In this document: one piece after another, positions 5,686 through 60,784 of the stretch
How positions within the stretch are numbered: the stretch's first letter is position 1
How the letters are laid out: every line of letters begins with the position of its first letter
Source of the DNA: Patescibacteria group bacterium
GTDB lineage: Bacteria > Patescibacteriota > Minisyncoccia > Phycocordibacterales > CAIRYW01
Direction: 5' to 3'
Assembly (NCBI GenBank): GCA_040389185.1
Contig: JAZKAJ010000011.1
Coordinates: forward strand, 1,033-65,032
DNA: 64,000 bases
The notes under the pieces: generated by a model
What the model was told of the DNA's origin: nothing
Database searches by the model: none
Seen by the model: the letters and a program-made list of their open reading frames with translations, nothing else
Position numbers and translations under genes: made by a program

Positions 5686-8079
5686 ATGGCCACTAAATCT
5701 AAAAAAGACACAAAAACCCTCGTCCTCCTCGATGTTCACGCGATTATTCATCGTGCGTATCATGCCCTTCCAGATTTTGCTTCGAGCAAAGGTGAGCCAA
5801 CAGGTGCACTCTATGGGCTTTGCCTCATGCTCTTTAAACTTATTGAAGATTTCAAGCCGGACTATATCGCTGCTTGTTTTGATCTTCCGAAGCCCACTTA
5901 TAGACACCTAGCATACGACGGGTACAAAGCGGGACGAAAGAAAACTGATGATGAACTCGTCTCACAGCTTATTCGTTCGCGAGAAGTGTTTCGTGCATTT
6001 TCAATTCCAGAATACGACAAAGAAGGATTCGAAGCTGATGATATGCTCGGAACTATTGTTGAACAGATGAAAGATGAGAAGGGAATCGAGATTGTGATTG
6101 CATCAGGAGATATGGATACAATGCAGCTCATTGAAGGTGATCGGGTCAAAGTGTTTACTCTTCGCAAAGGTGTTAAAGACACTGTGACTTATGGCGAGAA
6201 AGAAGTGGTAGAGCGATTTGGATTTAAACCGTTACAGCTCACTGACTATAAAGGACTTCGAGGAGATACATCAGATAATATTATAGGGATCAAAGGTATT
6301 GGAGAAAAGACTGCAACAACGCTCATTCAAGAATTTGGAACGATAGAAAATATGTATGCAAAAATTGAAGCCGGCAAGAAAGAAGAATTCAAAAAGATCG
6401 GAGTGACTGAGAGAATTTACGAACTTCTCGCAAACAACAAAGACGAAGCGGTGTTTTCAAAAATGCTTGCGACAATTCGTCGTGATGCGCCAATCGATTT
6501 CAAACTCCCTGACTCAACCTGGAGAGAACATATTGAGACAGAAAAGGTCAAAAACATGTTGAAATCATTCGATTTTCGAAGCATGGTGCCACGAGTTGAT
6601 GTGGTATTCGGAGATACGAGCTTAGAAGCTGAGGAGCTTAGAAGCTTAGAAGGAAAAACAAAAAAACAGGAGGAGGTTGCTCATAATTTATCTGATGAAG
6701 AAATTGAGAAACTAAAGATTGCAACATTTGTTTTGAATTCAACAATCAGTAATCCGGAACTTTCTGATGTGATCGCCTTTTCTGAACACGAGGATGCAGA
6801 TGAGGCCAAGAAAAATATTTTAAATGAAATCAAAAAGAAGGGTCTTGAATTTGTATACGAAAAGATCGAACTTCCGCTCATTCCGATTATCAAAAAAATG
6901 CATGATATTGGTGTAGCTATTGATGCTGACTATCTCAAAAAGCTCGCTAAGGACTATCATAAAGAACTCGACAAAATAGACAAGAAAATATTTGAACATG
7001 CAGGACACGAGTTCAATGTTGATTCACCAAAGCAGCTCGGTGTTGTGCTTTATGATGAATTGAATCTCGTCGGCAAGAACATGAAAAAGACCGCGGGTGG
7101 TGCGAAGTCGACCAAAGAAAGTGAACTCGAAAAACTTAAAGACTTACACCCGATCATTTCACTCATCATGGAACATAGAGAGCTCGCAAAACTTCTGGGC
7201 ACCTATATCGATGTGATCCCAACACTTCTTGATGATAATGGACGACTCCATCCAACATTCATTCAGACAGGTGCTGCGACAGGGAGAATGGCTTCAAAGG
7301 ATCCTGGAGTACAAAATATTCCAATTAAAACAGAGCTCGGACGAGCGATCAGAAATGCATTCATAGCAGAAAAAGGATTCAAGCTTTGTGCCTTTGACTA
7401 CTCACAGATCGAGCTTCGAATCGCGGCAATACTTTCTGACGATCAAAAACTCCAAGAGATTTTCAAAAGTGGAGAAGATGTTCATTCAGGAGTAGCATCA
7501 CAAGTCTTTGGAGTACCGATAGAGGAAGTAACTAAAGATATGCGACGAAAAGCGAAGGTGATTAACTTCGGGATCCTTTATGGAATGGGAGTAAATGCGC
7601 TCAAAAGTAATCTCGGAAGTACTCGAGAAGAGGCGCAGAGATTCTATGATGATTACTTCAAAACATTCTCGACTCTCGCAGAATATCTCGAAAACACCAA
7701 GAAAGAGGCTGCCAAAAACGGTTTTGTTACAACGATGTATGGAAGAAGAAGATATTTTGAAGGTATCAAATCCCACCTTCCGTTTATCCGTGCCGCTGCA
7801 GAGCGAATGGCTATCAATGCGCCGATACAGGGGACACAGGCAGATATTGTAAAACTCGCAATGACTGAGATAGATCGGATTTATGGGGATGATAAAGATG
7901 TGAGACTTCTCCTTCAAATTCACGACGAGCTTATCTATGAGATTAAAGAAAGTAAGGTGAAGGAGGTGTCAGAAAAAATAAAAAGTGTGATGGAAAACAT
8001 AATGGATCCAAAGATGACAAAAGGTGTGCCTATCGTAGCCAATGCATCATGTGGAGATGATTGGGGAAACTTGAGGTAA
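5686..8079 (+). CDS. polA: DNA polymerase I (5' nuclease plus family A polymerase domain; short or absent 3'-5' exonuclease region)
   Basis: 797 aa. N-terminal 5'-3' exonuclease motifs (LLDVHAIIHRAYHA, GIKGIGEKTA); polymerase motifs DYSQIELRI, RRKAKVINFGILYG and QIHDELIYE. Confidence 0.9.
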   Translation: MATKSKKDTKTLVLLDVHAIIHRAYHALPDFASSKGEPTGALYGLCLMLFKLIEDFKPDYIAACFDLPKPTYRHLAYDGYKAGRKKTDDELVSQLIRSREVFRAFSIPEYDKEGFEADDMLGTIVEQMKDEKGIEIVIASGDMDTMQLIEGDRVKVFTLRKGVKDTVTYGEKEVVERFGFKPLQLTDYKGLRGDTSDNIIGIKGIGEKTATTLIQEFGTIENMYAKIEAGKKEEFKKIGVTERIYELLANNKDEAVFSKMLATIRRDAPIDFKLPDSTWREHIETEKVKNMLKSFDFRSMVPRVDVVFGDTSLEAEELRSLEGKTKKQEEVAHNLSDEEIEKLKIATFVLNSTISNPELSDVIAFSEHEDADEAKKNILNEIKKKGLEFVYEKIELPLIPIIKKMHDIGVAIDADYLKKLAKDYHKELDKIDKKIFEHAGHEFNVDSPKQLGVVLYDELNLVGKNMKKTAGGAKSTKESELEKLKDLHPIISLIMEHRELAKLLGTYIDVIPTLLDDNGRLHPTFIQTGAATGRMASKDPGVQNIPIKTELGRAIRNAFIAEKGFKLCAFDYSQIELRIAAILSDDQKLQEIFKSGEDVHSGVASQVFGVPIEEVTKDMRRKAKVINFGILYGMGVNALKSNLGSTREEAQRFYDDYFKTFSTLAEYLENTKKEAAKNGFVTTMYGRRRYFEGIKSHLPFIRAAAERMAINAPIQGTQADIVKLAMTEIDRIYGDDKDVRLLLQIHDELIYEIKESKVKEVSEKIKSVMENIMDPKMTKGVPIVANASCGDDWGNLR

Positions 8080-11069: not shown

Positions 11070-11264
11070 TCATCCAGTTGGACCGCGAGTACGCTTATCG
11101 AACCTTACAGGTTCAGTACACCTTTTGGTGATTTTGTTTCGTTCCTCACAAAATCAGCTCAAAAGGTTTTCGATTCCAACACGCAAGTGCCCCACACTTG
11201 CTTGGACGCACAAAAATACAAAAACCTCAGACGTTGGACGTCTGAGGTTTTTGTATTTTTGTGC
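11070..11264 (+). repeat. tRNA 3'-half mimic structured element, type-2 copy D (partner tRNA-Lys), ending in a 26-bp perfect hairpin/terminator
   Basis: The conserved block gttggaccgcgagtacgcttatcgaaccttacaggttcagtacaccttttgg is shared with 52770-52823 in the opposite orientation. ggttttcgattccaac matches the tRNA-Lys T-arm and ttggacgcac matches the tRNA-Lys acceptor 3' strand. The hairpin gcacaaaaatacaaaaacctcagacg/cgtctgaggtttttgtatttttgtgc spans 11208-11264. Confidence 0.6.
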
Positions 11265-12344: not shown

Positions 12345-13721
12345 GTGCTAAACTCGCTCCTTGAGAGCAAAACAAACAGAAACACGACTATGATATCTAA
12401 CCTTAGAGGTCAGTCAAAACTGCGTTGCATGCAATGTGGGGCAGTTGTGCCCTTGTATGGAACAGTGCAGTTCACCTGCGGAAAATGCGGTGGATTGTAT
12501 GATGTCGAACATGAGTTCGGTCACATCACAAAAGGAGGACCCGATTATTGGAAAACAATCTTCGACGTTCGCACAAAACCATCGGGCAACGTCCTGTATT
12601 CCTCTGGGGTGTGGCGGTTCCATGAACTCATCATGCCCTCTCTCGATCCACAGGAAATTGTGTCGCTTGGCGAAGGTGTGTTCCAGATACTTTCTGCGGG
12701 CAAAAAGGTTCGTGACTGGGTCGGTGGCAACACCGATTTGTGGATCGTTCCTGAAGGTCTCACTCAAACTGGTTCCTTCAAGGATCACGGTGGCACAGTT
12801 GCCATGAGTGTTGCGAAAGCAATGGGCATCAAAACCATAGCTTGTGCATCCACTGGCGACACATCCGCAATGGCAGCCGCATACGCCGCCGCAGCAGGAT
12901 TGAAGTGTGTTGTTGTCTTGCCTGCGGGTAAGGTCACCAATGTGCAACTCGCTCAACCTGTCGCTCATGGTGCACGAATCATTACGATCCCCGGATCGTT
13001 TGATGACTGCATGCGCGTCGTTCGGGAACTCTGCGAAGCAGGCAGGGTTTTTCCAATCAACAGCATCAATCCGACGCGAATCGAAGGTCATCAAGCAACC
13101 GTCTTCCTTATGGCACAGTTCCTCCAATGGCAACTACCTGATGTGTTTGTGGTTCCTGTCGGTAACGGCAGCAACTCCTCATCCATCGGCAAAGCCATCC
13201 GTCTCCTCAAACAACTCGGTCTCGTCGCAGACAAGGAATGCAAGATTATCGGTGTCCAATCCGACTCTGCAAATCCGTTGGCGACAAGTTGGGAAAGTGT
13301 TCAAAGACTGGGACGGGTTGATATTGAGAAATGGCGCTCGGTCTATCAGCCGCGGAAAGACCTCGGAGAAACAGCTGCTACAGCGGCACGGATCGGAAAT
13401 CCGGTTTCTTGGGCCAAAGTCATGCGCGAAATCTGTGCCTCCGATGGTGCGGTGCTTACAGTGACTGAAGCTGAGCTTCTCGAAGCAACCCGAACACTCG
13501 GATCTTCTGGATTCTCTGGCTGTCCGCAAACTGGGACAGCTCTCGCGGGTCTCCGGCAAGCGATTGCTCGTGGATTCGTTAAACCAGGTGCGACGGTGTC
13601 GTTGGTGTCAACGGCAACCTCACTTAAGTTCCCTGATGTGGCGATGGAGTTTGGGGGTGACTTGATCACAAGTGCAGGGTCTTGCGACACTGAGGATATC
13701 GCGAGTATCATGGGAATCTGA
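12345..13721 (+). CDS. thrC: threonine synthase-like PLP enzyme with N-terminal zinc ribbon; markedly higher GC than surrounding DNA
   Basis: Zn ribbon CMQCG...CGKCG, PLP-lysine motif TGSFKDHGGT, glycine-rich loop VPVGNGSN. Local GC is visibly about 50-55% against roughly 35-40% elsewhere, and several long ORFs on other frames overlap it, as expected for high GC. The start may be the internal ATG at 12390. Confidence 0.7.
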   Translation: MLNSLLESKTNRNTTMISNLRGQSKLRCMQCGAVVPLYGTVQFTCGKCGGLYDVEHEFGHITKGGPDYWKTIFDVRTKPSGNVLYSSGVWRFHELIMPSLDPQEIVSLGEGVFQILSAGKKVRDWVGGNTDLWIVPEGLTQTGSFKDHGGTVAMSVAKAMGIKTIACASTGDTSAMAAAYAAAAGLKCVVVLPAGKVTNVQLAQPVAHGARIITIPGSFDDCMRVVRELCEAGRVFPINSINPTRIEGHQATVFLMAQFLQWQLPDVFVVPVGNGSNSSSIGKAIRLLKQLGLVADKECKIIGVQSDSANPLATSWESVQRLGRVDIEKWRSVYQPRKDLGETAATAARIGNPVSWAKVMREICASDGAVLTVTEAELLEATRTLGSSGFSGCPQTGTALAGLRQAIARGFVKPGATVSLVSTATSLKFPDVAMEFGGDLITSAGSCDTEDIASIMGI

Positions 13722-16158: not shown

Positions 16159-16806
16159 TTACTTCACTATCGAACATCCATTCACAAGCACATTACCAAG
16201 CTTTCCAGAGAGCTCACCTTTAAGAGTTAATCGATCTCCCTTGGATACTGTTGCCAATTGAGTCTCATCAGCTTTTGAGAACATACACTGAACATTCTCA
16301 AAAGAATACTGGCTTCCGTCGGTAAGTGAAATGTATGGAGTATCAACAATGTCTTTGCCAATGGTATCAACAAGGCCTGACACTTCGACAATATTGTTCT
16401 TGTACTTTGCATCAGCAGAAACTTCATTTGCTTTGTAGTCAGCAAGAAGTTTTGTTGCTGTTACTTTGATTGCTGGTTGTTCTGGTACTGGCACAGACAC
16501 ACTTTTATCTGTTACTACTGACGGCATAACATTACTTGATGAAGTTGTACCTATTATCACAAAGAGTACTAAGACAAGAAAGACTTTCAATCCTCGAGAA
16601 AGATTGATATGTAATTTCTCCTTTATTAATTTGTTACTCGGTGGCAATACAATGATTGCGATAAGGAGAAACAAAATTCCTGAGAGAGGCTTAGTAAAAA
16701 TTGTACTTACTGCTGTAAGTAACATGACTACACCAAATACCCAAGAGAATACAGAACCTAGAGTTATGTTTTTAGTCTTAACTGAAGACTGGTTGTTGTT
16801 TTCCAT
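16159..16806 (-). CDS. membrane-anchored OB-fold protein (tRNA_anti-like / BOF-type domain)
   Basis: 215 aa; N-terminal TM, then YKANEVSADAKYKNNIVEVSGLVD...GDRLTLKGELSG typical of OB-fold anticodon-binding-like domains. Confidence 0.4.
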   Translation of the reverse strand: MENNNQSSVKTKNITLGSVFSWVFGVVMLLTAVSTIFTKPLSGILFLLIAIIVLPPSNKLIKEKLHINLSRGLKVFLVLVLFVIIGTTSSSNVMPSVVTDKSVSVPVPEQPAIKVTATKLLADYKANEVSADAKYKNNIVEVSGLVDTIGKDIVDTPYISLTDGSQYSFENVQCMFSKADETQLATVSKGDRLTLKGELSGKLGNVLVNGCSIVK

Positions 16807-17070
16807 TGTAGCGAGTTTTTATAACATGACAGGTAGACAAAAAGCCCTCCGCCATGGCGATGGTCCGAAGACCACCCACATCCGTTTCCAGATATGACTC
16901 GCTACAAGTACCCTGACGAAGGGTTTTTTATCTTGTAGCGAGCTTTTCGACCATATCCTTTAAAACTTTTAAGGGTTTCAAAGGGGTTAGGTCTCTTATT
17001 AAGTTGTACTAAACAATAATACCAAGATTATAGGTATTAGTCAGTACCTTAGCTCGGATTAGGAATTTTA

Positions 17071-29225: not shown

Positions 29226-29446
29226 TACAATTAAAAAAAACGTACCGGTTCGTACGTTTTTTTTAATTGTATCCCTTCGAAAAAGTGCTGAACGCACTTT
29301 TGTAGAGGAATCGAACGCCGGAATATATTTTTCGGAGTTGAGAAAAATACGAGGTGGTGACCAGACAAATTCTGCAGGTAGCAGAATTTAGTCGAGGTCG
29401 ATACTCCTCTAGTAGAGGAATCGGGGTACTGAACCTGTAAGAATCG
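29226..29446 (-). repeat. tRNA 3'-half mimic structured element, type-1 copy C (partner tRNA-Arg-GCG), minus-strand sense
   Basis: A 29-bp perfect hairpin (29217-29280) embeds the tRNA 3' end. Read on the minus strand, the element carries sense copies of the T-arm (ggcgttcgattcctct) and the acceptor 3' strand (cgaagggata). The small hairpin aagtgcgttcagcactt lies between those two copies. The type-1 core is cgactaaattctgc-tacct-gcagaatttgtctggtcacca. A partial type-2 block lies at 29422-29446. Confidence 0.6.
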
Positions 29447-29479
29447 ATATTTCATTTTTATTTTTGCTATAATATCTAG

Positions 29480-41557: not shown

Positions 41558-42108
41558 AAAATTATAATAGCATTTCTTTTTAGATTAACTAAGTTGATTG
41601 TATATTGTTAGATATTAATAACTCTTTCTAATACAATACAATCGTTTTGTATATCATTCAGGTCTCATTATGTTCATTTTATTTTCTCTCCTTATTATTT
41701 CAAATAATTAGATATTTGTTGCAGGCGCAAGGTAAGTAAGTCAAGAACTGGAGTAAGAATTTTTCATTGAAAAAATGCTCCTGACTTGTATGAGAACTAA
41801 TATGAAAAAATGACACATTCGATGATATTGAACTCTTGAAAACTTGCATACAGATTGAAGATAACTTCGGCAATCTGAAACAGATTGCGTAATCTCACTT
41901 TAGCTGTCTGTTGATCTCCCGAAGGATACTTTGTAAACTACTTTTCTTCTATCTTCGCATACATATTAGTTTAGAAAATATAGTTGGTAATCCTTGCTGT
42001 TTCTGATTTCGCAAAGTGAGAAGGGTATTAGATCGGACGCTGTATACGAGAACACTTGTCTACGCGCTTCTTGCTCGTCGAAATAAGAAGTACTCTTGTG
42101 GCACAAAA

Positions 42109-42960
42109 TTACTTTCCTTTATACTTACCATCAAGCAGATCTCTCATTCCTTTATATTCAAATTGAACAGTTTTTGTTACCCATTTATTATTACGGATAG
42201 TGTGAGCATATCTAACCTTAGGTTCTTCATGGGTATTTTCTAAAACCTCCTCAGCAACAACGGGAGAAACCGCTATCGTAGATGCTTCGAATTTAGGCTT
42301 TAAAATTTCCATAACTTTTTCTCGGGTTTCTTTGATTTTTTTTGGATCCCACACCTCCTCCTCTTTTGGAGTACCTTCTTCAAGTAAAGAATAGATTTTT
42401 TCCTTTTCTTCGGGAGTTATTTCAAGATCTTTATCTGCCGTGAGTTTAAGCATTGCTTGTGAGAACATGACCCACGCCCGAAGCATATGAAAATCATTGG
42501 TAACAATTTCCACTTTTTTTACATCACCAAGATCTTCTTTGTGTGCTTGAATATATTCAAGAGTTGCACCTGCATTTCCAAGAGTCGAACCTTGCCCACC
42601 AATTGAAACCACATCTTCTTTTGCAATGCCTTCGGTATCTACGAGGCGCTTGGCAGCTTCATCAGCTCTTGAATCTCCGCTTTTTTCGTTCCCTCCTGTT
42701 GCCAAGACGATTATTTCTTCACCTATTTTCTTTGCATCTTCATAAGCAATCTTCACTGCTTCCTGTCTTGAAAACCCTCCTGAGACTTCACCAGGAAGAC
42801 TTGTGCCTGCATTCGTCTGGTTGGGAGTAAAAAGTTTAAATGCCCATTTTTTCTTACCTCCTCCATCTTCGATATTCCTTGGTGTCATTCGGGCACCCAA
42901 ATAGACCATAACTCTTTTTTTCTGTTCAATAATTTCTGCACTCGGTGGTTTTTCTATCAT
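42109..42960 (-). CDS. DUF218 (YdcF/ElyC)-domain protein
   Basis: VLATGGNEKSGDSRADEAAKRL...VVSIGGQGSTLGNAGATLEY...IVTNDFHMLRAWVMF matches the DUF218 pattern. Confidence 0.5.
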   Translation of the reverse strand: MIEKPPSAEIIEQKKRVMVYLGARMTPRNIEDGGGKKKWAFKLFTPNQTNAGTSLPGEVSGGFSRQEAVKIAYEDAKKIGEEIIVLATGGNEKSGDSRADEAAKRLVDTEGIAKEDVVSIGGQGSTLGNAGATLEYIQAHKEDLGDVKKVEIVTNDFHMLRAWVMFSQAMLKLTADKDLEITPEEKEKIYSLLEEGTPKEEEVWDPKKIKETREKVMEILKPKFEASTIAVSPVVAEEVLENTHEEPKVRYAHTIRNNKWVTKTVQFEYKGMRDLLDGKYKGK

Positions 42961-43493
42961 TTTTTAATTTTTATGCTAACTCTTAATCTTATTGCAATAC
43001 TATTATACCCCAAATTACGAAATGACCAAACCACACAATCTGATACAATACAAGAGCAACCGTAAGGTAGCTCTTGTATGTATGTTAAAAACATCCATCA
43101 AAATCTACAACACATTGCGAAATATTGGTACTAAAGTATTTTACACACTTAAACTTCAAAATACTACACTAGATAAATTTATGTTTATGTTTTGGTGTAG
43201 TCAAGCCAAAATGGAAAACGAGAAGGAAATTAATGGATGTAATGTGGTTATGAAATCAAATGAGAGAGCTTACAAGGCTTGGTCAGCGAAGATTGGTGGT
43301 CTAACTTGACTATGAGGTGGAGAAATATCTGCCGAGGAATTTGTCGAAAGAAGAATTTTTTTTCTGAGATTGAGATATTGGGTTTAATGAAGTTGATTGC
43401 CAACCGCTAGGGAGGCATTGATTATGCAAACCATTGACAAACGTGCATTTATTTGATATACTGAGTTTCAGTTCTTTAACAAGAAACACTGTG

Positions 43494-43547
43494 TGAGACT
43501 AGCTTTTTGTACCCTAATTTAGTTTAGGGTCTAAAAAGCTAGTCTCA
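43494..43547. repeat. 54-bp near-perfect palindrome upstream of a high-GC ORF
   Basis: tgagactagctttttgtaccctaa-tttagt-ttagggtctaaaaagctagtctca; 24-nt arms with 2 mismatches. Confidence 0.6.
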
Positions 43548-43603
43548 ACCTAAGACAAGCCGCTGCGGCGTGATCAGTCAAATCAATACAGGGATAAATA
43601 TCG

Positions 43604-44278
43604 ATGAAAAAAACATTGAGCACGTCTGCACTGGTAACCGCAGACAGTCCGAAAGAACAGAGAGCTACCAAAAAGTCCCGTTATACCCTGGCTCAATCAA
43701 TTCTCGGTGTGGATTTCATCACGCCAGAAGAGGTAGCCAAGGCTCGCGGGGCAATCTACACTGACGAGCAGATCAAGGCACTCGCCGAAAGTCTGCCGTC
43801 GGAAGACATGCTGAAGTGGTGCAAGGAAAATGGTTACGCCGTCATGCCCGCACCGCCCCAAGCGATGTCGTTGCTTGACGTTCGTAGTATCAAGTCCGAC
43901 CACTTCTACAACAAGACTGGGTGGCGGTATGCCGACCAGAAGTTTGCCCGTGAGGACAAGACGTCGTTCGGATGGCTTGCCATCAAGAAGACGCCAGTCT
44001 CGAACTCAGCTAGCAAAAACTGGGATGAGCAAAGCAAGCTCCTGTCCGCACTCGAGAAGGTGCCGAACGCTGCCGAAATGAGCTGGTTCATCACGACCTA
44101 CTTTGAGGTTCGTGGTGTCCGACTCTTCGAAGGTGTTTACGTTCGGACGTCCAGTCTCGACTCGGACGGCAACCACGTCCTCGTCGGCGGCTTTGACTCC
44201 GAGGGTCTCGGCGTCGACCGCTACTGGGCCAACGACCGCCACGACGTCCTTGGTGTCTCGGCCAGCAGGAAGCAGTGA
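43604..44278 (+). CDS. hypothetical protein encoded in a high-GC (foreign-looking) segment
   Basis: 224-aa ORF; GC visibly above 55% with many overlapping alternative-frame ORFs; no recognised motif. Confidence 0.4.
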   Translation: MKKTLSTSALVTADSPKEQRATKKSRYTLAQSILGVDFITPEEVAKARGAIYTDEQIKALAESLPSEDMLKWCKENGYAVMPAPPQAMSLLDVRSIKSDHFYNKTGWRYADQKFAREDKTSFGWLAIKKTPVSNSASKNWDEQSKLLSALEKVPNAAEMSWFITTYFEVRGVRLFEGVYVRTSSLDSDGNHVLVGGFDSEGLGVDRYWANDRHDVLGVSASRKQ

Positions 44279-44477
44279 TCCTTGAACCATTGAGCCTCCG
44301 CGAAAAATTTTTTCGTGGAGGCTCTGTCATTTTTATATTATTAAATCTAAGATATTTATATCTTGCTAATGTAACTTGGATCACGGTTCAAGTTCGCGAG
44401 ATATCTCACTTTGAAATATCGCCAGAATACTAATGCTTTACAAATCACGGTAGAGTGCGATTAAAGATAGAGAGAGC

Positions 44478-44605
44478 TCGTGTACTGAAACTGCAGAATG
44501 AGTAGTTAGGATATGTGCCTGCACCGGCTTCGCCGATGGCCTGGCGGACGGTATCTGCGTGAGAGAGGGGGGACGGTGAAGATGAGTTTGTATTTGGGCA
44601 TAGAT
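44478..44605 (-). pseudogene. frameshifted 5' fragment of a paralogue of the 47108-47431 gene
   Basis: About 88% nucleotide identity to 47307-47433 (start codon and first about 42 codons, MPKYKL(I/V)FTVP...). An extra C in the CCCCCC run shifts the frame. The fragment has GC-enriched third positions and is truncated at 44478. Confidence 0.6.
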
Positions 44606-44721
44606 TAAAGTGTAGCTTAGTTTTGGGAGGGAGAGGGTTTTGAAATATTTTTAGGGCGCAGGTAATGCCTTGGATCTAGGAGGTGTAATTCTTTGTTATA
44701 AGGAAAACAAAAATCAAGGGA

Positions 44722-45999
44722 TTATTTATTCTCCAAAATCTTGGGAACATTGAACATTGCGATTGTAATGTCGTCAGGTTTAGTAATATATTTACTGGTC
44801 ATTTCGCTTTTTATTTCAGCTTCATTTTTCACATCTTTGAATTTCATAGGATCGAAAGATTCAAGTGTGCCTTGTGTGAGCATAGTTTTTCGAATGTGAT
44901 ATTCATTAATGAAACCAGACGCTGTTCCTAGGACAGAGGGTGGTGTGAGCTTAAGTGTAGGATATTTCAATTCATATTTATCAAGCCAAGCTTCATTATA
45001 CTCTTTTGTTCTGGATTGATAGTTGTCAGAGAACCAGTCTGTAGCACATGTTATTGAATCTACATTTTGAACAGTGTGTATATTTTGTTTCAAATCAAAT
45101 GTGGTCTGTCGGCTTCCATCAGTAACACCAAGCGCTATACCAGTATCAGCATCATTTATATTGTCATCTCCATAAGAGATCAAGTTTCCATCTTTTGTTT
45201 TCACGTATACTGGTGAATCACCAAGCTGAAGTATGTTCACAGAACCATCGTCATTGATTCTACAAAGGGACATTGTGGTGTGGCCATTAAATTTATCTGC
45301 TTTAATTGCTGGATCTTTTGCTCTCACATCTTCAATAAATTTCTCAATAAGCGATTCTAGACCTCCATCTTCAAAGGCTTGTTCCCATGAATTGTTATCT
45401 TTTGTGAGCTCGTGTGATAAAAATCTGGCTATATCTCCGGAGTGTGGAGCGCCTCCCATCCCATCGGCAACACAGAATGTTTTTCGGTCTGGAGATATGC
45501 CAAATCCATCTTGCCCATGACTTTTTTCTTGTCTGTGTCTCATATTTGCATGAATGATTTTATAGCCGTCATCATCCAAATCGCCAAGCACTATTTTTTC
45601 ATTGCCTAATTCTAGTCCTTGATTGCCGTAAGTTTCATTTAGAGTTTCGTTGGTAATCGGACGATCTTTGAATTCCAAAGGTTCTTTTGAGAAAGAGAAT
45701 TGTGGTGGAGTATTAGGTATTGTTTGAACCATCTTCGGTTGAGATGCTGCTACTATTGGGACAGGTGTCGATTCTACGTTTCCATTTTTCACAAGTTGTT
45801 CTTTCAGAAATGTGTCAAAAAGACCAGTTCTCGTAGTCGGTGGCACAGGCTTTGATGGTATTTTTTGTGGTACCACTTGGCTCTCAATTTGTTTGCGTTT
45901 TAATAGATTATCAAATGATTCGGTCTGAGGTAACTCATCTTGAACAGGTTGCTGTCCGTTCTCCATAGATTTACGCAAGAGATCATCAAAATTACTCAT
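44722..45999 (-). CDS. PP2C-family Ser/Thr protein phosphatase with Pro-rich N-terminal region
   Basis: FCVADGMGGAPHSGD (PP2C DGxGG motif) and LQLGDSPVYV (GDS motif); 425 aa. Confidence 0.65.
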   Translation of the reverse strand: MSNFDDLLRKSMENGQQPVQDELPQTESFDNLLKRKQIESQVVPQKIPSKPVPPTTRTGLFDTFLKEQLVKNGNVESTPVPIVAASQPKMVQTIPNTPPQFSFSKEPLEFKDRPITNETLNETYGNQGLELGNEKIVLGDLDDDGYKIIHANMRHRQEKSHGQDGFGISPDRKTFCVADGMGGAPHSGDIARFLSHELTKDNNSWEQAFEDGGLESLIEKFIEDVRAKDPAIKADKFNGHTTMSLCRINDDGSVNILQLGDSPVYVKTKDGNLISYGDDNINDADTGIALGVTDGSRQTTFDLKQNIHTVQNVDSITCATDWFSDNYQSRTKEYNEAWLDKYELKYPTLKLTPPSVLGTASGFINEYHIRKTMLTQGTLESFDPMKFKDVKNEAEIKSEMTSKYITKPDDITIAMFNVPKILENK

Positions 46000-46040
46000 G
46001 TAAGGATTATATCAAAATATAGAAATACTGCTAAATATTT

Positions 46041-46266
46041 TGGGTGAGGCGAGAGTTTCGACCTCGACTAAATTTTTCTACCCGAAAAATTTGTCTGGTC
46101 ACCAGCTCACACCGCCGATGAGCTCATCGGCGACTACGCTTCGCTTCGTGTGTTCCGCTGTTCGAATCTCGCCTGTTTTTCGGAGAAAAACCAAGTTGCT
46201 TCGCAACTTGCCTCCGCCAATAAGAAAAAACACCTGCATCTGCACGGTGTTTTTTCTTATTGGCGG
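46041..46266 (+). repeat. tRNA 3'-half mimic structured element, type-1 copy A (partner tRNA-Ser)
   Basis: Its 5' end tgggtgaggcgagagtttcgac is antisense-like to the tRNA-Ser 3' end. The core is cgactaaatttttc-taccc-gaaaaatttgtctggtcaccagctcac, followed by the perfect hairpin cgccgatgagctcatcggcg. Sense T-arm/acceptor copy ccgctgttcgaatctcgcc and acceptor end cctccgcca follow. A 21-bp perfect hairpin closes the element at 46214-46266. Confidence 0.6.
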
Positions 46267-46534
46267 GCCACTGGAGTTAAGTGATAGAGGACTCAAGTGT
46301 CATAAGGATATTCTAGGATTTTTACAGAGAATATTCGAGGCACTTGAGTCTAAGGTGGACTTTCTATAAAATGAGACAACTGAGACAGTTTTGAGAGGTT
46401 TGAAATACGCGCATTGTAAAATTGAAAATTCGTGGTATTGTTTTCGCGTTAGTCTAACCGTTCGACAGTATCTAAAGAACTGTCTCATGGTAAGACAGTT
46501 CTTCGATATCTAACGAATCAACCTCTCGTAACCT

Positions 46535-47038
46535 ATGAAAACACCGATTACCGCCGGCCGCGTCTTTTCGCAGCTCTCTTATACAACCATCATCAAAGTC
46601 ATTGCTGCACTTACTGTGATGCACAATTCTGAGAAAGAGTGCAGGGGTGGAATCCTTGCTATTCTGGTGCAAGGACCAGAAGGAAGCACCCTCGAATCTC
46701 GCGAACTCGGAGCCCCGGGAGAAAAGGCATTTGATTCTGCCTATTTCGCCCACGAAAAAATCCGTCGCCTCGCCACTCGTCGCCTGACTGCGGGAAGCGA
46801 AGGGGAATATGCATCTTCGCAAAGTGCAGATCCTGAGAAGGGTCAGTACGGCGGCTGCGTCGTGTCGTGGCACGGGAAGTATGAAATCTTTATCTCATTC
46901 TCGGGAGCACCCGCTGTCGTGGATGAGGTCGTCACTTATGTCGTCGCTGAAGCCCTCGGGTTCACGGTTTCGACTGAGTATCAGAACGATCTTCTTCCGC
47001 AAGCTCGCGCACTACTCGAGCGTTGTCGCAGGCCATGA
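46535..47038 (+). CDS. hypothetical protein in a second high-GC segment
   Basis: 167-aa ORF; visibly high GC; preceded by (T)GAGACAG motifs at 46372-46392 and 46485-46505. Confidence 0.4.
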   Translation: MKTPITAGRVFSQLSYTTIIKVIAALTVMHNSEKECRGGILAILVQGPEGSTLESRELGAPGEKAFDSAYFAHEKIRRLATRRLTAGSEGEYASSQSADPEKGQYGGCVVSWHGKYEIFISFSGAPAVVDEVVTYVVAEALGFTVSTEYQNDLLPQARALLERCRRP

Positions 47039-47107
47039 AATAAGGCAAGTGTCGTTGATATCCCACGTGGAGTCCTGAGCAATCGGGACTCCATTTTTAT
47101 TTTTTTA

Positions 47108-47431
47108 TTAGAATTTTCTTGTTTCGAGAGGGAATAAATCGTATGCAATTTCTTCGTATGGGTGACTTGCTCGGAGTGCTTTTAATACTTCATCAACTTT
47201 ATCTGCATCAATCTGACATTCAATTCTTTCTTCCTCCACCTCTTCAAATTTTCCGACTTCACCGATTGCTGGTGTTGCACCTGTTTCAGGCTTGAATCTT
47301 CCTATGCCTCGTGTACTGAAACTGCAGAATGAATAGTTGGGATATGTGCCTGCACCAGCTTTGCCGATAGCTTGGCGAACAGTGTCTGCGTGGGAGAGGG
47401 GAACTGTGAAGACGAGTTTGTATTTGGGCAT
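47108..47431 (-). CDS. conserved hypothetical small protein (alpha/beta, about 107 aa)
   Basis: MPKYKLVFTVPLSHADTVRQAIGKAGAG...HPYEEIAYDLFPLE; a frameshifted paralogous fragment lies at 44478-44605. Confidence 0.45.
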   Translation of the reverse strand: MPKYKLVFTVPLSHADTVRQAIGKAGAGTYPNYSFCSFSTRGIGRFKPETGATPAIGEVGKFEEVEEERIECQIDADKVDEVLKALRASHPYEEIAYDLFPLETRKF

Positions 47432-47435
47432 AGGG

Positions 47436-48467
47436 TTATTTTACCACTCTTTTAGATCTTAAGGGTTTGAGTTCAGGGAACAAGTTCAAGTTAAAAATTT
47501 TATTCAATAATAGATTCCTTGTTATTTCATCCATTTTAAGCATGAGACTTAATAATGCTACTGAATTCTCGCGCCACTCCTCACTCGTCCTTGACCAGTC
47601 CCAAACAATCTCTCCTTCATCCTGGATGATGTTTGATGATTTTGGAATCAGTGCCTCGTGCACGGTTTTGTGTCTTATTTTTTGCCTTATTTCCCAAATT
47701 ACTTTTAAGTATTCTTCTACCCGTTCAGTATCTTTGATTATTTCTGAAAGGCGATGCTCGATCCACTCCTTTGATGTTGTTTTACTATGAGAATGAATTT
47801 TTCCATGAACACTACATTCAACTATTCCAGGACATTTAGGTGCTGTTCCTATTATTGATTCCGTTATAGAGAATAGAACCAAGATGCGCAGAAAGGATGA
47901 ATTTCTAATAGTTCTTTCGGTGGTAATCCTTGTATTTTCTTTACTATTAAAATAAGCCTTAATTAAGGATTTGTTTTCTCTAGACTGGTCTAGATATTTT
48001 TTATATAAATCCGCGTATCTTAAAATATGTGGGTAATTATTTGGGAAATATATTTTATTTGATATGTCAGAATAATCTAAAAGATAATTACACTCACCTT
48101 CGGGTATCATCTTATCCGTATCAAAATTTGTACTTTCGTACCATTCCAGAGAAATATAATCATTAAAAATTATGTTATGAAATATTACCCATTCGTTGAT
48201 TGTGTTTTGACTACATTCACTAAATTCAATATTCATTGAGTCCCAATACATCGTCCCAAATCCAACCTCTATCTTAACTCGGGTTGCGGGAGAGATTGTT
48301 AACCCGTTAATAGTAACTTCTTTGTTTGGGGCATGTTGAGTTGGTAGTGTAAATTTCACGAGTCTAATTATATATCTACATATATAATTGTCGATAAATG
48401 AGGAGGCGAGAGTTTCGATCGTTACACGATCAGTACCCCGATTGGATAATTTGTTTCGATACCTCAC
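47436..48467 (-). CDS. hypothetical protein with C-terminal Rx4H (HEPN-like) motif
   Basis: 343 aa with IRQKIRHKTVHEA near the C-terminus. The 5' end of the longest ORF overlaps repeat element E (48400-48467), so the true start may be downstream. Confidence 0.35.
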   Translation of the reverse strand: MRYRNKLSNRGTDRVTIETLASSFIDNYICRYIIRLVKFTLPTQHAPNKEVTINGLTISPATRVKIEVGFGTMYWDSMNIEFSECSQNTINEWVIFHNIIFNDYISLEWYESTNFDTDKMIPEGECNYLLDYSDISNKIYFPNNYPHILRYADLYKKYLDQSRENKSLIKAYFNSKENTRITTERTIRNSSFLRILVLFSITESIIGTAPKCPGIVECSVHGKIHSHSKTTSKEWIEHRLSEIIKDTERVEEYLKVIWEIRQKIRHKTVHEALIPKSSNIIQDEGEIVWDWSRTSEEWRENSVALLSLMLKMDEITRNLLLNKIFNLNLFPELKPLRSKRVVK

Positions 48468-48573
48468 ACATTATGCTCAATCGGGCTTCGAATCTCGCAA
48501 GCAGTGCGCCCCGGCACTGCACTCCTCCGCCCAACAAAAAAGGCGCCCATATAAGGCGCTCTTGTTTTGTATT
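48400..48573 (+). repeat. tRNA 3'-half mimic element, degenerate type-1 copy E, abutting the tRNA-Ser 3' end
   Basis: gaggaggcgagagtttcga is antisense-like to the tRNA-Ser 3' end. Also present: aatttgtttcgatacctcac (core-like), the T-arm copy gggcttcgaatctcgc, the hairpin gcagtgcgccccggcactgc and the acceptor copy ctcctccgccca. A long inverted repeat with the real tRNA end spans 48510-48590 and encloses the ggcgcc-catataa-ggcgc terminator. Confidence 0.5.
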
Positions 48574-48661
48574 GGGCGGAGGAGGCGAGATTCGAACTCG
48601 CGGTACCTTGCGGCACTCCTGTTTTCAAGACAGGTGCACTAAACCACTATGCGACTCCTCC
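48574..48661 (-). tRNA. tRNA-Ser (anticodon UGA), type II with long variable arm
   Basis: Acceptor GGAGGAG/CTCCTCC; 3-bp D-stem with large D-loop; anticodon arm CCTGT-CTTGAAA-ACAGG; variable arm GTGCC-GCAA-GGTAC; T-arm GCGAG-TTCGAAT-CTCGC. Confidence 0.8.
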
Positions 48662-48721
48662 AATATTTGGCTATGTTAGCAGAAAAAGCTGGAATTCACA
48701 AATTGGGGTATACTATTCTAT

Positions 48722-49114
48722 ATGAGAATTTTGGGTATTGATTATGGTTCAAAGAGGGTAGGGCTTGCAACTGCTGATACAGAGAGCGGTATGGCGTTTC
48801 CTCGTTCTGTTATAAATAACGACAAGGATCTTTTGAAGACTATTGGCGAGATTAAAAAAAAGGAAAATATCTCAAAAATTATTCTTGGTGAAAGTAAAAA
48901 CCTGAACGGTACGGATAACGATATTATGGAAGATATTCGGAAATTCAAGGCGGTTCTTGAAGCTGAACTTGATGTCGAGGTAATATTACAGCCAGAATTT
49001 TATAGCACTTATGGTGCATCAAGGATCCAGGGGGATAGCGCTATGATAGATGCATCAGCAGCAGCCATCATTTTGCAGTCATATGTTGATCAATTAAAAA
49101 ATATAAAACAATAA
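48722..49114 (+). CDS. ruvX: Holliday-junction-resolvase-like nuclease RuvX/YqgF
   Basis: MRILGIDYGSKRVGLATAD start and overall 130-aa YqgF pattern. Confidence 0.85.
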   Translation: MRILGIDYGSKRVGLATADTESGMAFPRSVINNDKDLLKTIGEIKKKENISKIILGESKNLNGTDNDIMEDIRKFKAVLEAELDVEVILQPEFYSTYGASRIQGDSAMIDASAAAIILQSYVDQLKNIKQ

Positions 49115-49115
49115 A

Positions 49116-49505
49116 ATGTCAGACGAAATAAAAGTAGAAGAAAAGGTGGTAGAAGAAATGAAAGTTGATCCAAAGATAAGTATTGATGATCTAAAGAAAA
49201 TCGAGGTAACACTGGGCAAGATCCTCAGTGCTGAAAAAATAGAAGGATCAGACAAGCTTTTAAAACTCAAAGTTGATTTCAAAGAAGAGTCAGGTCCTCG
49301 ACAGATCCTCTCAGGGATTCAAAAATATTTTCCTGACGAATCCGTGCTTGTGGGGCAGAAATGTATGTTCGTCACAAACCTCGCACCTCGAATGATGATG
49401 GGTATGGAAAGTAATGGAATGCTCTTCGCGCTCGGAGGAGGAGACAAACCATTTTCACTTTTGAAGGCGGATGATGCGGTGGAAGAGGGAACGAGTGCCA
49501 ATTAA
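49116..49505 (+). CDS. tRNA-binding domain protein (CsaA/Trbp111-like, EMAP fold)
   Basis: KLKVDFKEESGPRQILSGIQKYF...MFVTNLAPRMMMGMESNGMLFAL typical of the OB-fold tRNA-binding domain. Confidence 0.7.
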   Translation: MSDEIKVEEKVVEEMKVDPKISIDDLKKIEVTLGKILSAEKIEGSDKLLKLKVDFKEESGPRQILSGIQKYFPDESVLVGQKCMFVTNLAPRMMMGMESNGMLFALGGGDKPFSLLKADDAVEEGTSAN

Positions 49506-52569: not shown

Positions 52570-52682
52570 CAAAGATAAACAAAAAGCCCTATCGTTTTTC
52601 AACAATAAGGCTCTTATAAATTTGGATTACGATTTACAAAATCTAATCCATAGAATCAAATATCTGAGATTTTTTATATGTT

Positions 52683-52830
52683 ATGCCCCCGAGCAAGCCT
52701 GGGATGGCTTGCGTCCAGGAATCGAAAACCTTTTGAGTATAATTTATGATTTTAAGAAATAAATTATCCAAAAGGTGTACTGATCCTGTAAGGATCGATA
52801 AGCGTACTCGCGGTCCAACCGGGAGCACTG
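52683..52830 (-). repeat. tRNA 3'-half mimic element, type-2 copy F (partner tRNA-Arg-UCU), minus-strand sense
   Basis: Block 52770-52823 is near-identical to the reverse complement of 11074-11127. Read on the minus strand, the element carries ctcaaaaggttttcgattcc, then the hairpin gcaagcc-atc-ccaggcttgc, then tcgggggca. That last segment matches the Arg-UCU acceptor 3' strand. Confidence 0.55.
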
Positions 52831-60584: not shown

Positions 60585-60784
60585 TATACAGGAGTCTCTC
60601 CTTCGACTAAATTTTGCTACCCGCAAAATTTGTCTAGGCACCAGCTCACTTGTTTTGAAAGCTTTCAAAACATAGCTCCGCTGTTCGAGTCCTAACGAAA
60701 GTGCGTTTAGCACTTTCTTATCGCCCACAAAAATACAAAAACACCAGATATTATCTGGTGTTTTTGTATTTTTGTGGGCGATAC
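60585..60784 (+). repeat. tRNA 3'-half mimic structured element, type-1 copy B (partner tRNA-Val), ending in a 31-bp perfect hairpin that includes the tRNA-Val 3' end
   Basis: Its 5' end tatacaggagtc is antisense-like to the tRNA-Val T-arm. The core is cgactaaattttgc-taccc-gcaaaatttgtctaggcaccagctcac, followed by the hairpin tgttttgaaagctttcaaaaca. Sense T-arm copy ccgctgttcgagtcct and the hairpin aagtgcgtttagcactt follow, then the acceptor copy atcgccca. The palindrome 60720-60782 contains the A-rich run cacaaaaatacaaaaac. Confidence 0.65.

Follow-up and report, generated by a model that had tools for sequence, protein, structure and literature searches.

Organization of the locus

The stretch of DNA analysed here, referred to as the window, comprises 64,000 nucleotides of a Patescibacteria MAG. 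Between 43.4 and 44.6 kb it contains an open reading frame, ORF1 (43604–44278, + strand; locus tag V4469_02535 at NCBI), which encodes 224 amino acids and has a GC content of 55.7%, 17.6 points above the 38.1% of the window. The frame is preceded by a 54-bp palindrome (43494–43547), whose 24-nt arms are 92% complementary and separated by 6 nt. Downstream of ORF1, on the opposite strand, lies the frameshifted 5' part of a second gene (44477–44601, − strand), of which an intact copy (47108–47431, − strand; V4469_02550) encodes a protein of 107 residues. Both copies share the same orientation, are 2.83 kb apart and bracket the PP2C gene (44722–45999), element A1 (46040–46270) and ORF2 (46535–47038, + strand), a second high-GC frame.

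The original prediction, made from the letters of the window, had recognized the high-GC frame, the palindrome and the direct orientation of the two gene copies, all of which were found as described. The partial copy is likewise real and includes the start codon. However, it comprises 124 coding nucleotides and not 128, its ATG is located at 44599–44601 instead of 44603–44605, and the repeat pair as a whole corresponds to 44477–44603 versus 47308–47433. Relative to 47308–47431, the copy displays 13 mismatches in 124 nt and a single additional base in a G-run (44568–44573), in line with the predicted +1 insertion. The resulting identity of 89.5%, or 88.8% if the extra base is counted, agrees with the predicted value of about 88%. 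An enrichment of the copy in GC, which had also been proposed, could not be substantiated, since 9 GC-increasing versus 4 GC-decreasing substitutions do not represent a significant bias (binomial p = 0.27).

ORF1 and its protein family

At least 293 homologues of ORF1 were identified, with sequence identities of 60–87%. In species-representative genomes the family occupies 41 loci (L008–L048), all of which belong to Patescibacteria, and no relatives were detected on the viral contigs of IMG/VR. ORF1 yielded no match in Pfam, NCBIfam, PHROGs or PADLOC. That the high-GC frame might be a structured RNA and not a gene was rejected in view of hundreds of intact frames and conservation at the protein level. 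The AlphaFold2 model of ORF1 has a mean pLDDT of 59.7, with values below 50 over residues 173–224, i.e. across the variable region (VR) described below; with this model, poor over the VR, no fold match was obtained in the PDB, and there was no sequence match either. In DGR targets, the VR is expected to be displayed by a C-type-lectin or an Ig-like fold.

Alignment of the window to the 41 loci revealed a second copy of the last ~100 nt of the frame a few hundred bases away. By self-BLAST, an adenine-biased repeat pair, formed by a non-coding template repeat (TR) and the VR, can be observed in 17 of the 19 loci that bear avd and/or RT. In 15 loci the pairs are 118–131 nt long and 79–89% identical; in typical pairs, with repeats of 118–122 nt, 14–18 of 15–19 mismatches coincide with adenines of the non-coding copy. 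Adjoining the TR are a bAvd gene (PF22296, E = 5e-17) and RT frames of the RVT_1 type, which carry an IGNLTSQ motif. Homologues of avd and/or RT are situated within 3 kb of the ORF1 homologue at 19 of the 41 loci; avd together with both RT halves is present at 17 of them, RT was found at 18 related loci, and L008 possesses avd only. Since the combination of an adenine-biased TR/VR pair, bAvd and RT is the defining signature of a DGR, ORF1 is the variable (target) protein of a Patescibacteria DGR and belongs to a Patescibacteria-wide family of such proteins. Orphan targets seem to be common in this phylum, as 22 of the 41 loci have no RT within 3 kb of the target gene. The first survey of DGRs in the CPR is reportedly that of Paul et al. 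2017.

In two of the related loci, L009 (942–2025, − strand) and L011 (4654–5734, + strand), the DGR RT is split into two overlapping frames at a (GA)n run encoding 'RERERE'. This split could represent a frameshift site, a contingency tract or an assembly artefact.

The VR of the window occupies the 3' end of ORF1 (44154–44262, + strand) and aligns to the TRs of 13 related DGRs. Compared with the conserved TR columns, it is mismatched at 16 of 26 adenines and at only 4 of 60 other positions. ORF1 thus combines VR homology with variable sites at TR-adenine columns, as befits a member of the DGR target family. However, the window contains no second copy of 44154–44262 and hence no TR/VR pair. 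With both halves of the L011 RT as queries, tblastn gave no match in the 64 kb of the window, nor in the sister loci L001 (20.7 kb) and L050 (20.4 kb), two parts of one 54-kb contig that share about 3.2 kb; TR, RT and avd are all missing from these three sequences. Accordingly, the window locus has neither the RT of its own nor the TR/VR pair of a complete, autonomous DGR.

Composition of the target gene

The patch had originally been regarded as foreign DNA of high GC content. Across the 41 loci, however, the ORF1 homologues average 57.7% GC against 42.8% in their flanks, in hosts that range from 33 to 60% GC, whereas RT (38–40% GC) and avd (42%) of the same cassettes are host-like. GC3 of ORF1 amounts to 0.65–0.77, compared with about 0.3 for the housekeeping genes of the window. 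Because a GC content of ~58% is maintained across 41 different hosts, it is a trait of the family and not a mark of recent import, and the patch is the cassette of a DGR target gene. In a low-GC genome, DNA with a strongly deviating GC content therefore need not have been imported recently; here the anomaly is a constant of one gene family. L009 and L011 agree at 84% of third codon positions in the target gene and at 64% in avd, with similar protein identity in both.

Promoter, hairpins and spacer

Upstream of ORF1 lies a sigma-70-type promoter (43434–43462, + strand; TTGACA-17-TATACT with TG extension) that matches the consensus at 11 of 12 positions and is retained upstream of ORF1 homologues in unrelated genomes. 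The palindrome at 43494–43547 is predicted to form a hairpin of −34.1 kcal/mol (z = −8.5) on the + strand. In an alignment of 21 loci, 4 of its 21 predicted pairs show compensatory changes and many G-U pairs are possible on the sense strand only, which argues that the 5' UTR of the target mRNA folds into an RNA structure. A second hairpin (44292–44324, + strand) begins 14 nt after the ORF1 stop codon and consists of a 15-bp stem followed by a T-run (−25.7 kcal/mol, z = −7.2). Conserved in most loci, it is a candidate for the IMH-associated hairpin but could equally be a plain terminator. In distant genomes, the DNA sequences of promoter, 5'-UTR hairpin and terminator are conserved.

The terminator is followed by a segment of the DGR spacer ('unit X'; 44325–44478, + strand), which precedes the TR in intact elements. 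This remnant shares 81–88% identity with the spacer that separates VR from TR in L008, L011, L013, L018 and L042, and to an inverted upstream copy in L009, L016, L017 and L020. The order of an intact element is target, terminator, conserved spacer, TR, avd (antisense) and RT; alternatively, in some loci, the block of spacer, TR, avd and RT is found inverted upstream of the target. Neither the 5'-UTR hairpin nor the spacer nor element A has a family in Rfam.

The junction between spacer and gene stub

In the great majority of loci with a spacer match of this length, the match to the window ends at 44478, and this end point did not change when the query was extended to 44800. Exceptions are L025, which ends at 44473, and several others that stop at about 44412–44426. 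Intact elements continue for another ~130 conserved nucleotides beyond the point corresponding to 44478 before the TR is reached. From 44477 onwards the window resembles the 107-aa gene, which results in a 2-nt overlap (CT) with the end of the spacer, so that DGR spacer and gene are truncated at one shared point. The truncation of the gene, previously attributed to an insertion at tRNA-Ser, is thus a join of the cut DGR spacer with codon 42. What remains of the gene is a stub of its first 41 codons, frameshifted by the extra base. None of the 41 DGR loci holds a homologue of the 107-aa gene, and the stub therefore does not belong to the element as cargo. An assignment of stub and intact gene as a VR/TR pair was rejected as well, because the substitutions between them are mostly synonymous and represent ordinary transitions that run either way.

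Once the frameshift is corrected, the encoded sequence of the stub is MPKYKLIFTVPLSHADTVRQAIGEAGAGTYPNYSFCSFSTR, which differs from the intact gene by two residues (V7I and K24E). The 13 substitutions comprise 11 synonymous and 2 non-synonymous changes (dS ~0.52, dN/dS ~0.04; binomial p = 6e-6), which indicates that the two copies diverged as working genes and do not stem from a recent local duplication. A promoter-like leader precedes the stub (44602–44660, − strand). It resembles the sequence in front of an intact 107-aa gene on a different contig (L003), whereas the sequence preceding the window's own intact copy is unrelated. The promoter-like motif CCCTCCC..AAACTA[A/C]GCTACA[A/C]TTTA occurs in the window at 44602–44640 (− strand) and in L003 at 196–240 and 1281–1320, in front of two different genes.

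PP2C-anchored scans of genome and metagenome contigs returned no complete DGR at this locus and no intact 107-aa gene flanked by DUF218 and PP2C. As no genome in the pre-deletion state was found, this state is one that we infer.

Sister genome and the 2357-bp island

The comparison with related genomes proposed along with the original prediction was carried out on a contig of a sister MAG (L001; GCA_040384165.1), which is collinear with the window at 96% identity over 42001–46061 and 48403–49200. The contig contains the palindrome, ORF1, the stub, the PP2C gene, one copy of 'element A', tRNA-Ser and RuvX. Its stub shows the same junction and the same frameshift and deviates by two substitutions only. 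The identical junction places the join before the split of the two strains. Moreover, the sister has the stub without the intact copy, which identifies the stub as the old resident copy and the intact gene as the later arrival. Together with the promoter-like leader of the stub, this contradicts the earlier suggestion that the stub was derived from a higher-GC donor.

What the sister lacks is a segment of 2357 bp (46062–48418), which represents a strain-specific island. The 16-nt sequence GAGGCGAGAGTTTCGA at its left end (46046–46061, + strand) is repeated exactly at 48403–48418 and closely resembles the reverse complement of the 3' end of tRNA-Ser. At this left repeat the alignment to the sister breaks, and L001 displays a single repeat copy and no island. 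The tRNA-Ser(UGA) gene (48573–48662, − strand), detected by ARAGORN and Rfam, is the anchor of the insertion series. Enclosed in the island are the body of a type II tRNA-like element, i.e. the remainder of element A1, as well as ORF2, the intact 107-aa gene and a frame of 343 codons (47436–48467, − strand). The latter is very low in GC (~34%) and lies directly upstream of the 107-aa gene; since its listed start overlaps the boundary repeat, the real start is probably located further downstream. No integrase or recombinase could be recognized on the island, as none of its three frames corresponds to a model of Pfam, NCBIfam or PADLOC; PHROGs likewise gave nothing for ORF2 and the 343-aa frame.

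The 107-aa protein, for which about 900 homologues exist, corresponds to the PII-like insert domain of NIF3/YqfO proteins (E = 3.3e-29 with PDB 2gx8_A, a NIF3-related protein; E = 2e-13 with 2nyd_A). ORF2 has only four homologues in 5.8 billion proteins, and its AlphaFold model reaches a pLDDT of 73.9. Candidate folds of the roadblock/longin or the DUF336-like type (Ybr137w, PduO-C) were not adopted as a name for ORF2, given E-values of 2.6e-3 or higher and TM-scores of at most 0.46. The convergent pair of ORF2 and 107-aa gene recurs on contig L003. A palindrome in the ORF2 leader, AAGAACTGTCTCA...AGACAGTTCTT (46478–46505 in the window), is kept in the loci of the two closest homologues (L002, ~7942–7966; L003, ~304–329). 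Contig L002 carries ORF2, a 24-nt remnant of the 3' end of the 107-aa gene, element-A-like sequence and a segment resembling 46260–46357 in circularly permuted order, an arrangement that would fit a circular intermediate.

Structured repeats near tRNA genes

The island is integrated in one member of a family of structured repeats of 150–230 nt, which are mostly situated just downstream of tRNA genes. Copies can be observed in the window at 48398–48580, 46040–46270, 29230–29450, 52575–52830, 60590–60770 and 11085–11260, and in L001 at 12444–12600 and 16800–16960. Each repeat includes an inverted copy of the last ~22 nt of the cognate tRNA (T-loop, 3' strand of the T-stem and 3' strand of the acceptor), interrupted by a hairpin of 21–23 nt, together with a bidirectional terminator common to the family and a conserved 'body' of one of two types, in which base changes are compensatory. 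At 11 kb, the copy imitates the 3' end of tRNA-Lys but is 10 kb away from that tRNA. The family has no match in Rfam. Elsewhere in the window, a LOOT RNA (RF03000) is located at 16859–16993 (− strand), with 76.4 bits versus a gathering score of 46.4.

Differences between the sister strains within ORF1

While the flanks of ORF1 are ~99% identical between the sister strains, ORF1 itself is only 87% identical, and the differences are clustered. Within the TR-homologous part, 15 of the 27 TR-adenine columns differ, compared with 7 of the 82 remaining columns (Fisher p = 1e-6), and the differences between the two orphan VRs thus follow the DGR-type pattern. Outside of the TR-homologous region, dense clusters of substitutions occur at 43879–43932 (16 of 54 nt) and 44116–44144 (8 of 29 nt), with stretches free of any substitution between them. 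Homing could not produce these two clusters, which favours a contribution of recombination.

Differences in the VR are unexpected if the DGR died before the strains separated. Since the RT-less junction is common to both strains, they point either to a TR and RT located elsewhere in the genome and acting in trans, or to VR alleles imported by recombination from strains whose DGRs are live. It is conceivable, though rather doubtful, that the orphan VR is still rewritten in trans by a TR and RT elsewhere in the genome, as a remote target whose own cassette was deleted. Equally tentative is the broader idea that the family-wide GC3 of ~0.7 and the unusual conservation of synonymous sites in the target gene, beside RT and avd of host-like composition, reflect a DGR-linked process or constraint at the nucleotide level that extends beyond the VR.

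Discussion

The patch at 43.4–44.5 kb is best explained as a decayed DGR, a known kind of element that has undergone ordinary genome decay. Very probably, the locus consists of the surviving half of this element, joined illegitimately and ancestrally to a resident NIF3-PII-like gene, and of an island that subsequently brought a second allele of the same gene. According to this history, the patch between 43.4 and 44.5 kb would have kept promoter, 5' UTR, target gene with VR, downstream hairpin and part of the spacer of a formerly complete element. A single illegitimate recombination, most likely a deletion, may have removed the rest of the spacer, the TR, bAvd and the RT. The other end of this event would lie in codon 42 of the convergent resident gene, so that the 3' 200 nt, two-thirds of the gene, were lost and a frameshifted stub of 124 nt was left behind before the window strain and its sister separated. 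Later, the window strain alone would have acquired the 2357-bp island at a tRNA-like repeat next to tRNA-Ser, and with it a second, intact and diverged copy of the gene. With the stub resident and the intact copy borne by the island, the 'direct repeat' of 2.8 kb represents two separately inherited alleles and not a duplication.

As an alternative, a partial DGR consisting of the target and part of the spacer, which never included TR, avd and RT, could have been inserted into the 107-aa gene, with the junction as one end of the insertion. Both the junction and its 2-nt microhomology would fit an insertion equally well, and it is common for a target to have no RT within 3 kb, as at 22 of 41 loci. 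Such an insertion, however, requires a second break on the left side and a separate loss of the 3' part of the gene, where one deletion accounts for both truncations. In addition, other orphan cassettes usually end just past the terminator, at about 44337, and not inside the spacer. We therefore regard a partial insertion as improbable.

The original prediction, in which serial insertions at tRNA-Ser delivered ORF1 and the stub as foreign donor DNA of higher GC content, with the stub as part of an orthologue from the donor, is very unlikely to describe the origin of the patch. In its favour are the GC content of ORF1, 17.6 points above the window, the 9 versus 4 split of GC-changing differences in the stub, and the existence of an island with att-like repeats at tRNA-Ser. 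However, these repeats bound 46062–48418 and not the ORF1 patch, the 9 versus 4 split does not reach significance (p = 0.27), and the GC content of ORF1 is a family constant in 41 hosts whose RT and avd are host-like. Furthermore, stub and ORF1 are shared with a sister devoid of the intact copy, and the stub possesses a native-looking promoter. The underlying observation was nevertheless confirmed, and its interpretation is partly supported: the stub is a recombination scar, and DNA was taken up stepwise at tRNA-Ser, namely in the form of the 2357-bp island.

That the region of the 107-aa gene was duplicated locally, in tandem or as a segment, and that one copy then decayed, as the direct orientation at a distance of 2.83 kb might suggest, can practically be discounted, since the copies diverged under purifying selection (dS ~0.52, dN/dS ~0.04) and have unrelated upstream regions, the sister has the stub only, and the intact copy resides inside an island with boundary repeats of its own.

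The probable loss of a DGR engine by deletion, with the clipping of a neighbouring gene, followed by the arrival of a replacement allele on an island, turns an apparent foreign patch with an odd duplicate into a history that can be dated.

Comparison with known systems reveals similarities at three levels. The 107-aa protein aligns over its full length with the PII-like insert domain of NIF3/YqfO proteins (residues 163–263 of 2gx8), but stands alone, without the NIF3 core. Integrase-mediated insertion of tRNA-targeted islands takes place at the 3' end of the tRNA and leaves direct repeats of the tRNA end. Likewise, the 2357-bp segment is located downstream of tRNA-Ser, is flanked by 16-nt repeats that resemble the 3' end of this tRNA, and has an empty counterpart site in the sister. 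It differs from such islands in that no integrase is recognizable among its genes and in that the crossover is positioned in the tRNA-like repeat ~160 nt downstream, not in the tRNA itself.

The closest counterpart of the ORF1 family is a cellular DGR clade restricted to the CPR, the targets of which have no recognizable domains (clade 2; Roux et al. 2021, PMC8144416). Relatives of ORF1 share with this clade the C-terminal VR, a nearby TR, adenine-specific mismatches, bAvd and an RVT_1 RT, and ORF1 itself is a target protein without a recognizable domain. In contrast, the copy in the window is devoid of TR, avd and RT, and its cut spacer is fused to another gene. Nonetheless, its orphan VR differs from that of the sister strain at TR-adenine positions, and this adenine-specific difference makes the locus suitable for asking whether CPR DGRs act on remote targets.
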